A DNA stretch of 64,000 bases from a virus. The notes below the pieces were generated by a model. The model had not been told where the DNA came from. It was given only the letters and a program-made list of their open reading frames with translations, and searched no databases. The stretch covers positions 32,001 to 96,000 of the IMG/VR virus record IMGVR_UViG_3300046522_000297. One strand, given 5' to 3'. The position numbers were made by a program, and so were the translations under genes. This document shows positions 11,313-12,625 of this stretch, one piece after another (position 1 is the stretch's first letter; each line of letters starts with the position of its first letter).

Positions 11313-11388
11313 GGGGGTATAGCTCAGTGGTCAGAGCAGAGGCTTCTAAACCCTTGTGTCCGGAGTTCGAATCTCCGTGCCCCCACCA
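11313..11388 (+). tRNA. Amber suppressor tRNA (anticodon CUA)
   Basis: GGGGGTA/TGCCCCC acceptor, GCTC/GAGC D stem, loop TT-CTA-AA (CTA at 11346-11348), CGGAG-TTCGAAT-CTCCG, A73, CCA. Confidence 0.88.
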
Positions 11389-11397
11389 AATTTCAAA

Positions 11398-11499
11398 CAT
11401 AAAATAGCTCAGAGTCCCGAATTGACAGAGCATTCCCCGTGAGGCTGAATCAGACGGGAGAGGTCGTTGAGAGACATCAGGGGTTCTCAACTTTTATGA
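11398..11499 (+). ncRNA. Non-canonical tRNA-like RNA 1
   Basis: CATAAAA/TTTTATG acceptor, TA-GCTC...GAGC D arm with 17-nt loop, enlarged anticodon and T arms, no CCA. Confidence 0.65.
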
Positions 11500-11510
11500 T
11501 TGGTTTCAAA

Positions 11511-11594
11511 CTCGAAGAAGCTCAAGCACTCCACAAGTGAGCAAGTCCGGTGTAGGACATAAGGTTGGTGGTTGGAATCCATCCTTCGAGGCCA
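11511..11594 (+). ncRNA. Non-canonical tRNA-like RNA 2
   Basis: CTCGAAG/CTTCGAG-G-CCA, GCTC/GAGC, T arm GGTGG-TTGGAAT-CCATC. Confidence 0.7.
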
Positions 11595-11603
11595 AGTTTC
11601 AAA

Positions 11604-11688
11604 CACGAGATAGCTCAAAGTCCCTTAACAGAGCAGTCCAATTACTGAAAACAGGTTGCTGGGCTCGGGTCCCCAGCTCTCGTGACCA
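11604..11688 (+). ncRNA. Non-canonical tRNA-like RNA 3
   Basis: CACGAGA/TCTCGTG-A-CCA, GCTC/GAGC, GCTGG/CCAGC T stem, no regular anticodon arm. Confidence 0.7.
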
Positions 11689-11729
11689 TTTCGTAACACC
11701 TTTTTTTAACCTTAAATAGAAAGCTAAAA

Positions 11730-12062
11730 ATGACGTAGATTTCCGAACACACCTACAATTACGTTTTTGTCAGAACTGATTTACCCATCCCTCAACAGCT
11801 AGTCCAAGCTGGACACGCTGCCTTAGAAGCTGGAGCAACTTTCGGTCGCATATCGAAAGACCCTGCTTCCCTCATCATACTTCAAGTAAAGAACAAAGCT
11901 AAGCTTGAAGAAGCAATGGCCAAGATCCAAGAGGCCGGAATCCGAATAGAAGCATTTTACGAGCCCGACTGGGACTATGGTTTAACTGCGTTTGCAACTG
12001 AACCCGTGACTCAAGAGAAGCGTAGTATTTTCCGAAAATTCAGACTCTGGAGCCAGGCATGA
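11730..12062 (+). CDS. Pth2-family (peptidyl-tRNA hydrolase-like) protein with in-frame TAG at codon 3
   Basis: ATG-ACG-TAG then open frame YVFVRTDLPIPQQLVQAGHAALEAG...FYEPDWDYGLTAFATEP...FRKFRLW; 110 codons. Confidence 0.8.
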
Positions 12063-12625
12063 TTTCCGAAACCTTTGCAGATATGATGCATAACATGAGG
12101 CACTGTTATCAGTTCGAGAACGTGAACATGTATGAACATGGTTCAATGGTGCATGAATCCTTTAAACAACTTATAGCCCAGCTTGAGGGCGGAGAACAGA
12201 TCGTCGATCTTCCTCCGTAGATTTACGAGATTTATGAAGAAACTAAGCACCTACTGGTCAGCGACAAAGACCTGTTTATGTACCATGTGTTTCATGATTG
12301 TGGTAAGCCTGCTTGTCAGACCATAGACGAGCAAGGTAGGAAACACTTCCCGGACCATGCCAAGTGGTCTAAGGAGCAATACGTAAGGATCTTTGGTGAG
12401 AATGGGACTGTACCTGAGTTAATCGGGTCAGATATGGATTTCCATACAAAGTCAGGCGAAGACCTGGCCCACCTGTGGAATTCCCCCTTAGCTCTTACGT
12501 TGTATTTCACGGCCTGGGCTGAGATTATCGCTAACAGTCAAATGTTCGGCGGATTCGACAGTACCAGTTTTAAAATCAAAAAGAAGAAATTGATTCAAGC
12601 AGGTAAAAAATGGAAGAAGAGTTAA
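12059..12625 (+). CDS. HD-domain phosphohydrolase with in-frame TAG at codon 54
   Basis: ATGA-coupled start; NMYEHGSMV before the TAG (12218-12220), HDCGKP and HFPDHA after it, same frame. Confidence 0.8.

Follow-up and report, generated by a model that had tools for sequence, protein, structure and literature searches.

In-frame amber codons in a Pth2-like/HD gene pair linked to a suppressor tRNA gene in large phages

Introduction

In prfB, the gene of release factor 2 (RF2), an in-frame UGA at codon 26 is passed by a +1 frameshift, an autoregulation that senses the release factor. In phage lambda, the bar-type minigenes are open reading frames (ORFs) of two codons that provoke peptidyl-tRNA drop-off. 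Gut phages of the crAss-like, Lak and other groups use genetic codes 15 or 4 with phage-encoded suppressor tRNAs, and their dependence on these tRNAs has been proposed to time the translation of the recoded genes (bioRxiv 10.1101/2021.08.26.457843, PMC9523058). For jumbo phages that keep the standard code, the targets of the suppressor tRNAs could not be identified in XacN1 (PMC5852040), and the role of the suppressor tRNA was only speculated upon in RsoM2USA (PMC8504454). Here we analyse a stretch of 64,000 nucleotides (the window; positions 32,001 to 96,000 of the IMG/VR virus record IMGVR_UViG_3300046522_000297, 114,007 bp) from an uncultured phage. The window contains a tRNA gene with the anticodon CUA, followed by two adjacent genes for a Pth2-like protein (gene 1) and an HD-motif protein (gene 2), each interrupted by an in-frame TAG. 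We refer to the gene pair as the module and to its in-frame TAG codons as gates. Programmed readthrough as such is a known phenomenon. Our literature search turned up no description, for standard-code phages, of a start-proximal amber gate that is specific to one module and has its own dedicated tRNA.

The module shares with the recoded gut phages that a phage tRNA(CUA) would read in-frame UAG codons while the host uses the standard code. In those phages, recoding extends over tens to hundreds of genes in late or lytic blocks, and TAG is lost as a stop. Here, in contrast, the standard code and the TAG stop are kept, gating is limited to one two-gene module, usually with a single gate per cistron, and very distant phages share the same client module. 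The gate resembles the early stop of prfB in that termination is pitted against an alternative decoding event, so that the stop acts as a sensor; unlike prfB, the module would escape by a cognate suppressor tRNA, and what is sensed would be the tRNA itself or release factor 1 (RF1). As with selenocysteine UGA and pyrrolysine UAG, there are a special tRNA, few client genes and linked loci. However, the module involves neither a special amino acid nor a special synthetase, elongation factor or mRNA element, its tRNAs are ordinary cloverleafs with diverse acceptor stems, and its UAG lies where the residue is probably irrelevant. The unsuppressed gene 1, finally, amounts to a two-codon ORF (AUG-ACG-UAG) at the head of a Pth2-like gene, as in a bar minigene, but the codons before the TAG differ widely among phages.

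Results

Both genes of the pair contain an in-frame TAG

Gene 1 reads ATG ACG TAG ATT TCC GAA, with the TAG at 11736, and has 107 open codons past the TAG. The first in-frame ATG, GTG or TTG past the TAG is 60 codons downstream. Gene 2 is joined to gene 1 by an ATGA overlap and reads CCG TAG ATT TAC GAG between its YEHG and HDCGKP motifs. In both genes, the sequence agrees with an initial annotation of the stretch that had been made from the letters alone. That annotation had also proposed a 13-nt context common to the two TAGs. The context is there in the window, where 12 of the 13 nt are identical, but it does not hold as a conserved signal, as relatives keep only the TAG and a following A, often as TAG-ATT or TAG-AAY.

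The TAGs are not sequencing errors, a possibility that the initial annotation had named. Two independent IMG/VR contigs from other samples, whose encoded proteins are 99% (gene 1) and 93% (gene 2) identical to those of the window, retain both TAGs. In addition, the stretch is covered almost fully by contigs from a single rhizosphere DNA run (X1, which may be its source), and the X1 contigs show 0 differences from the window.

The gate recurs in cultured phages and metagenomic loci

A tblastn search with the read-through proteins finds the adjacent Pth2-like/HD pair in cultured jumbo phages. About 150 loci from metagenomes have the pair as well. Gene 1 opens with Met-x-TAG or Met-x-x-TAG in Serratia phage BF, Cronobacter phage GAP32, Pectobacterium phage CBB, Yersinia phage fHe-Yen9-04, Xanthomonas phage XbC2, Acinetobacter phage ME3, Salmonella phage Arash and Ralstonia phage RsoM2USA, and likewise in LR756511. 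XacN1 and CM1 encode a fusion in which HD precedes Pth2-like, and the fusion of Tenacibaculum phage pT24 has the reverse order. Each of these single ORFs starts with MK-TAG, placing the TAG at codon 3 whichever domain leads. The internal TAG of the HD gene is found at codon 46 in Mimasvirus and Eneladusvirus, elsewhere in the same variable loop as the TAG of the window, and the site of the window itself is also used in loci L073-L076. Overall, the TAGs are retained in phages of Proteobacteria and Bacteroidota hosts and in uncultured megaphages.

A profile scan of IMG/VR yields 80 loci (L numbers), 70 of them non-redundant, and 65 of these 70 carry a TAG gate. Four seemingly ungated loci are Pth2-like-HD fusions with the gate at the start of the first domain; in the fusions L097 and L130, the TAG stands behind a more distant ATG. 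A second scan, with the Pth2-like profile, gives the same pattern, and all 36 loci with an intact 5' region in a scan of JGI/ENA metagenome contigs are gated by our own count. In 10 loci the separate cistrons each have their own gate, whereas fused genes are gated on the first domain only.

A strict scoring rule gave a set of 66 N-terminal gates. In this set, the TAG is preceded by two or three sense codons (ATG included) in 53 and followed by A in 58. The next codon is ATT in 21 gates, AAC in 15, AAT in 9, ATC in 3 and ATA in 3; AAC, AAT or AAA together account for 25, and other gates have ACN, CTN or GCT. The sense codons before the TAG are variable (Leu 24, Thr 8, His 7, Ser 6 and Lys 6, among others). 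Because they vary so widely, the initial proposal that a Met-Thr minigene feeds the enzyme with its substrate finds no support in a conserved feature.

At two loci, a TAG falls between coding regions. In L223 (around position 5001) it stands exactly at the junction of HD and Pth2-like, and in RsoM2USA (ORF92/ORF91; L007:2462-2510) it stands at the junction of ORF92 and HD, at the end of the upstream ORF. Suppression of TAG at these junctions would yield fusion proteins.

The module is misannotated in GenBank records KY630187, JN882285, KU574722, LT960551, OP292654, AP018399, LC168164 and OQ632216; the annotations affected include those of BF, GAP32, CBB, fHe-Yen9-04, XacN1 and pT24. Gene 1 is unannotated or truncated to a C-terminal remnant, and the HD gene appears as two coding sequences, with a spurious 'membrane protein' at the split gene in GAP32. 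In XacN1 and pT24, the start of the fused gene is set past the TAG. Two PHROGs families, phrog_26054 (46 amino acids) and phrog_34073 (77 amino acids), are made of module fragments only. The module has thus been overlooked because a stop at codon 3 or 4 leads gene callers to truncate, split or drop the genes.

The gated module is linked to tRNA(CUA)

Every cultured phage with a gated module that we checked has a tRNA(CUA). The gene lies 0.4 kb upstream of the module in ME3, 0.5 kb downstream in Arash, where it is annotated as tRNA-Phe, and 2-3 kb downstream in GAP32, CBB, BF, fHe-Yen9-04 and XbC2. The distance is 8 kb in LR756511, 12 kb in RsoM2USA and about 100 kb in CM1. In pT24, whose genome has only 3-4 tRNAs, the tRNA(CUA) is 2.7 kb upstream. 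XacN1 has two copies of the suppressor tRNA (PMC5852040). In the Erwinia phage Hallingskeid, the Pth2-like domain is ungated, and no suppressor is found among the seven of its eight tRNA matches that ARAGORN called. The homologs therefore retain a start-proximal TAG together with a linked tRNA(CUA), the opposite of the outcome (sense codons and no linked CUA tRNA) that the initial annotation had set down as speaking against it.

In the IMG/VR loci, ARAGORN alone places a tRNA(CUA) within 6 kb in 38 of the 57 loci first scored as gated. When a motif search adds CUA genes that ARAGORN misses (described below), at least 46 of 65 gated loci have one. G002, an apparent exception, was resolved by a tRNA(CUA) 46 kb away.

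One locus carries a different stop codon. At L109:5657-5668, gene 1 reads ATG GAA TCG TGA GTG and has a good Shine-Dalgarno sequence. Directly upstream (L109:5402-5478) is a type-I tRNA with the anticodon UCA, which is not Sec-like. As a single case, this possible opal gate is only suggestive of covariation of the stop codon with the anticodon. Separately, in L215 and L216, which belong to a phage of 61% GC content, a Pth2-like gene that seems ungated and whose start is unplaced has a tRNA(UCA) 670 nt upstream.

Start-proximal TAG is confined to the module

In a crude gene call of the 114-kb genome, 18 of 188 ORFs end in TAG, the rarest stop, and TAG is accordingly a rare but normal stop, as first annotated. 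Reading TAG as sense raises the coding density from 0.894 (code 11) to 0.912, and the added ORFs are spurious. No other gene with a credible in-frame TAG was found in this genome; the candidates are spurious 5' extensions or antisense frames.

We scanned for ATG-(1-4 codons)-TAG followed by a long ORF, with TAA and TGA as controls. In the genome of the window, BF and RsoM2USA, start-proximal TAG is no commoner than TAA or TGA, and matches beyond the module are antisense or spurious. In the 70 loci, by contrast, TAG is counted 109 times, TAA 44 times and TGA 64 times. The surplus consists of 65 sequences identified by BLAST and 2 Pth2-like sequences, all of them HD, Pth2-like or Pth2 genes. As the TAG surplus comes from module genes only, the gate belongs to the module and not to the genomes. 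The confinement of start-proximal TAG in three genomes and 70 loci also bears out the initial view that programmed readthrough would be local, in place of recoding.

The suppressor tRNA is an ordinary cloverleaf

ARAGORN predicts 21 tRNA genes in the window, one of which has the anticodon CTA. This gene is 76 nt long and scores 63 bits (E=3.7e-13) against RF00005, for which the gathering score is 29; it is a complete tRNA, as had been noted. It folds as a type-I cloverleaf with a 7-bp acceptor stem, an A73 discriminator and an encoded CCA. The anticodon loop, UUCUAAA, has 7 nt with U33, A37 and A38, and a C.C mismatch at 31:39 leaves an anticodon stem of 4 bp.

Pyrrolysine-type tRNAs have a short D-loop, a 6-bp anticodon stem and a 3-nt variable loop. 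Assignment to this type was ruled out by a D-loop of 8 nt, a variable loop of 5 nt and an anticodon stem of 4-5 bp. The name 'tRNA-Pyl' given by ARAGORN is a mere label for the anticodon.

In a nearest-neighbour comparison with 440 other phage tRNAs, 17 of 47 suppressors have Lys as their nearest isotype, with identities of 60-75%, pointing weakly to an origin from tRNA-Lys. The acceptor stems vary widely among the suppressor tRNAs, which fits a gate whose inserted residue does not matter. In contrast, the anticodon loop is CUCUAAA or UUCUAAA, and thus contains A37-A38, in 40 of 43 suppressor tRNAs. Among 45 unique tRNA(CUA) genes of the window and the loci, the loop-proximal anticodon-stem position 31:39 is unpaired (mostly C.A) in 19; the 442 other tRNAs of these loci include 40 such cases (Fisher p=5e-8, without correction for phylogeny).

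Several loci have conserved CUA tRNA-like genes that ARAGORN misses (L103:1690-1775, L111:5408-5495, and in L105, L145, L146 and L151), about 400-600 nt upstream of the module. In these genes, a 5-bp D stem follows the acceptor stem after about 9 nt, not 2, and the other arms are normal. L103 and L111 differ by compensatory changes in the D stem. These genes may represent a non-canonical class of suppressor tRNA of huge phages.

Predicted folds of the two gene products

Gene 1 matches PF01981 at E=1.4e-4 with 22.4 bits, just under the Pfam gathering cut-off of 23, and matches the NCBIfam Pth2 models only at E of about 0.1. Its AlphaFold model has a predicted local distance difference test (pLDDT) score of 92. 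In Foldseek, the model retrieves Pth2 structures, including archaeal Pth2 and human Bit1 (2zv3, 3erj, 1q7s, 1rlk, 1wn2 and 1xty; E=3.9e-6 to 6e-5, template modelling score 0.70-0.76); for 2zv3, 3erj, 1q7s and 1xty, E is about 4e-6 and the score is 0.72-0.76. Gene 1 thus has in common with Pth2 the alpha/beta fold and the motifs RxDL...Q..HA and DxGxTxF, and its family forms a distinct, phage-restricted subfamily (phrog_34073, weakly phrog_1866). The catalytic residues of canonical Pth2 are the Lys of a Gly-Lys motif and an Asp. When the canonical Pth2 of the window is aligned with the Pth2-like profile by hhalign, its Gly-Lys falls in a 2-residue gap of the profile, so that this segment appears deleted, whereas the Asp of DxGxT is aligned; the alignment probability is low. 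By its predicted fold, the product of gene 1 is therefore described as Pth2-like and not as an established peptidyl-tRNA hydrolase.

Gene 2 belongs to phrog_14850 (E=7e-63), a family of unassigned function, and matches no Pfam or NCBIfam family at E<=0.1, hence no Pfam HD model. Among 34 HD sequences, 21 columns are invariant, including the H...HD...D ligand motif (H27, H79-D80, H100, D125 and H129). The predicted structure (pLDDT 95.6) has an HD fold. The best solved match is 3wfo_A, residues 250-446, with Z=13.3 over 161 residues (VIA-align); other matches (PhnZ, PPX/GppA, PgpH, YfbR, OxsA and DatZ) have Z of 7-10. The sole sequence-profile match, at E=0.006, is also to 3wfo_A, through HD[CI]GKP...GK.HF..H. 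Structures 3WFO-3WFS are of a class II CC-adding tRNA nucleotidyltransferase, whose tail domain is listed as the contact to the tRNA elbow. Gene 2 resembles the C-terminal HD region of such class II CC/CCA-adding enzymes, but it is a stand-alone protein of 188 amino acids or a fusion to Pth2-like. A full CCA- or CC-adding enzyme was considered and rejected, as the nucleotidyltransferase head domain and a PolyA_pol Pfam match are both missing.

In a large protein database, the members of the gene 2 family are metagenomic and phage proteins that carry neither a name nor a Pfam domain, and several entries are fragments of 113-134 amino acids that end at the internal TAG. At column 54, where the window has its TAG, relatives of 53-74% identity carry Leu (7), Gln (4) or Ser (1), amino acids that can all be encoded by a codon one substitution away from TAG (TTG, CAG and TCG).

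Taken together, the two predicted folds point to tRNA 3'-end chemistry, and the tRNA-maintenance module proposed at the outset fits them (Pth2 at E=4e-6 in Foldseek; HD to the CC-adding C-terminal part at Z=13.3). Since fusions occur in both domain orders, the two enzymes appear to work together, most likely on tRNA 3' ends.

Layout of the cassette and its surroundings

The features of the cassette are listed in Table 1.

Table 1 Features of the tRNA(CUA)/Pth2-like/HD cassette in the window
Feature	Position	Strand	Evidence
Predicted amber-suppressor tRNA, anticodon CUA	11313..11388	+	ARAGORN; Rfam RF00005; equivalent tRNA(CUA) near the module in relatives
341-nt spacer between tRNA and gene 1	11389..11729	+	No ORF, no Rfam family
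Amber gate of gene 1: AUG ACG UAG, then A (ATT)	11730..11738	+	Sequence
Gene 1, 110-amino-acid putative Pth2-fold hydrolase (Pth2-like), readable only with the UAG at codon 3 decoded	11730..12062	+	
Gene 2, 188-amino-acid putative HD-motif phosphohydrolase, in-frame UAG at codon 54	12059..12625	+	Translation; phrog_14850
Internal amber gate of gene 2: CCG UAG AUU	12218..12220	+	Sequence; lies in a variable loop that separates the first His from the HD motif

The spacer has no Rfam match at E<=1 and no terminator-like site on the + strand. It is not conserved. The tRNA is 40-160 nt from the gene in several relatives (40 nt in L075), and the contig of one relative has other sequence in place of 11501-11597. 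Between 11391 and 11688, the motif TTTCAAA recurs, which also precedes real tRNAs, and the spacer contains D-arm words similar to TAGCTCAG.

A relative of about 94% identity is present in two root-metagenome RNA libraries (X2 and X3) and in a rhizosphere DNA run (X6). Its X2 and X3 contigs cover 11597-12638; transcription is not proven by these RNA-library contigs. The relative has G at window position 12059, giving gene 2 a GTG start, and the ATGA overlap with gene 1 is therefore not strictly conserved.

About 6 kb downstream of the module, at 18017-18379, there is a canonical, intact Pth2 (PF01981, E=1.7e-34), in line with the initial annotation. The ribonucleotide reductase of this phage has at most 59% identity to that of any cultured phage.

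Discussion

The recurrence of the gate, its confinement to one module and its linkage to tRNA(CUA) make it likely that module-specific programmed amber suppression by a dedicated phage tRNA(CUA) couples the synthesis of the two enzymes to that tRNA. The suppressor tRNA would be charged by a host synthetase and compete with RF1 at UAG. Full-length enzymes would be made only when tRNA(CUA) is present, processed, charged and outcompeting RF1. At an N-terminal gate, an unsuppressed start would yield no more than a di- or tripeptide, which costs next to nothing and leaves no truncated protein, and a gate at the very start of the gene or within a variable loop would make the inserted residue irrelevant. 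Amber suppression is favoured by a purine 3' of the UAG and by A37-A38 in the tRNA. The A that follows the UAG and the A37-A38 of the suppressor tRNAs fit such contexts. Each cistron has its own gate unless the genes are fused or overlapping. These features suit a gate better than an accident. The joint activities proposed for the two enzymes are deacylation, removal of peptidyl or N-acyl groups, and removal of a 3'-phosphate or cyclic phosphate. The gate might serve as a timer that delays the enzymes until phage tRNAs have accumulated, as a checkpoint or as a feedback loop; in this respect, the translation-state switch suggested by the initial annotation appears a reasonable reading of the sequence.

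Several points weigh against this programmed suppression. We infer from the DNA that the genes are translated, that the tRNA(CUA) is charged and that it decodes the gates by readthrough, and the substrates of the enzymes and the purpose of the gate are likewise deduced. A tRNA(CUA) within 6 kb is lacking in 19 of the 65 gated loci. In LR745206, which is 635 kb long and gated, there is no tRNA(CUA) among 57 tRNAs called by ARAGORN or among pattern matches. Five Rfam tRNA matches in LR745206 are not among the 57, and because ARAGORN misses the non-canonical CUA tRNAs of that clade, this result is not evidence of absence. The co-occurrence of gate and tRNA has a Fisher p of 0.04, with only 5 ungated loci and no correction for phylogeny. 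The GTG right after the TGA of L109 weakens the covariation argument, and 27 of the 66 gates have ATT, ATC or ATA after the TAG, which are rare starts in translation table 11, so that termination-reinitiation might apply to these gates. Lastly, as the Pth2-like family appears to be without the canonical Gly-Lys, its chemistry may differ.

Among the alternatives, it is conceivable, if unlikely, that the suppressor decodes UAGs without any regulatory role and that, with a suppressor tRNA in place, sense-to-TAG changes at tolerant sites of nearby genes were neutral and were fixed by drift (constructive neutral evolution). Such sites are indeed where the TAGs lie, at the N-terminus and in a variable loop; the internal position varies by lineage, and Leu, Gln or Ser in the column of the internal TAG of the window each have a codon one step from TAG. 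Drift, however, would scatter TAGs over many genes, whereas they are observed only in the module and are concentrated at codons 3-4. It would also not account for a TAG on both separate cistrons and on the first domain only in fusions, nor for gates that persist across distant phages while tRNAs turn over. A somewhat poorer explanation is reinitiation, in which AUG-x-UAG is a mini-ORF, the enzyme is made from the next codon or from a downstream non-canonical start, and tRNA(CUA) has another role. The Ile codons just mentioned are possible starts for this purpose, and the GTG of L109 would be another. The 25 gates with AAC, AAT or AAA next, and those with ACN, CTN or GCT, cannot initiate in this way. 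Moreover, reinitiation leaves unexplained the internal TAGs (codon 54 in the window, codon 46 in Mimasvirus and Eneladusvirus), the tight linkage to tRNA(CUA) and the use of TAG over the commoner TAA.

The two remaining explanations are far less probable. An alternative genetic code with TAG as sense (code 15-like), either throughout the genome or within a block, the situation known from crAss-like and Lak phages, would account for the suppressor tRNA(CUA) and for TAG as the rarest stop. We regard it as very improbable, given the ORFs that do end in TAG, the spurious gain in coding density and the mere two genes of the 114-kb genome that need TAG readthrough. Consistent with this, the authors of the XacN1 study read through all 18 annotated amber stops and found nothing (PMC5852040). 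Hardly credible at all is that the genes are decaying pseudogenes or that the TAGs are assembly errors, even though GenBank relatives show the genes split, truncated or absent. The TAGs recur in independent assemblies and in genomes of cultured phages, the proteins are under constraint (the 21 invariant columns) and have confident predicted folds, and there is no frameshift and no further stop codon.

A more specific version of programmed suppression is possible, and we put it forward tentatively. The tRNA(CUA) may be a sentinel that decodes the gates only, reports the state of the tRNA pool and closes a feedback loop or checkpoint on the two enzymes. The state reported would comprise processing, the CCA end, charging and competition with RF1, and the decoding of sense codons would be undisturbed. 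As a homeostat, the sentinel could keep a potentially toxic deacylase and phosphoesterase from overshooting. As a checkpoint, it could release a counter-measure to toxins of the CCA end (N-acetylating GNAT, CCA-pyrophosphorylating toxSAS and similar) once the phage tRNA supply works. If true, the sentinel tRNA would be a widespread, undescribed regulatory principle of large phages.

With programmed suppression by the linked tRNA(CUA), clients can be named for the suppressor tRNAs of standard-code jumbo phages, which previously had no known client. The arrangement would be a minimal natural case of gene-specific stop-codon redefinition with a dedicated tRNA, and a plausible evolutionary stepping stone to the block-wise recoding of gut phages. 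The pair of orthogonal tRNA and gate is of interest to synthetic biology. As several cultured phages on laboratory hosts carry the module, the arrangement is directly testable. Its conservation reaches from enterobacterial phages to those of Bacteroidota and to megaphages, and the arrangement would tie a Pth2-like/HD enzyme pair to tRNA 3'-end biology during infection.

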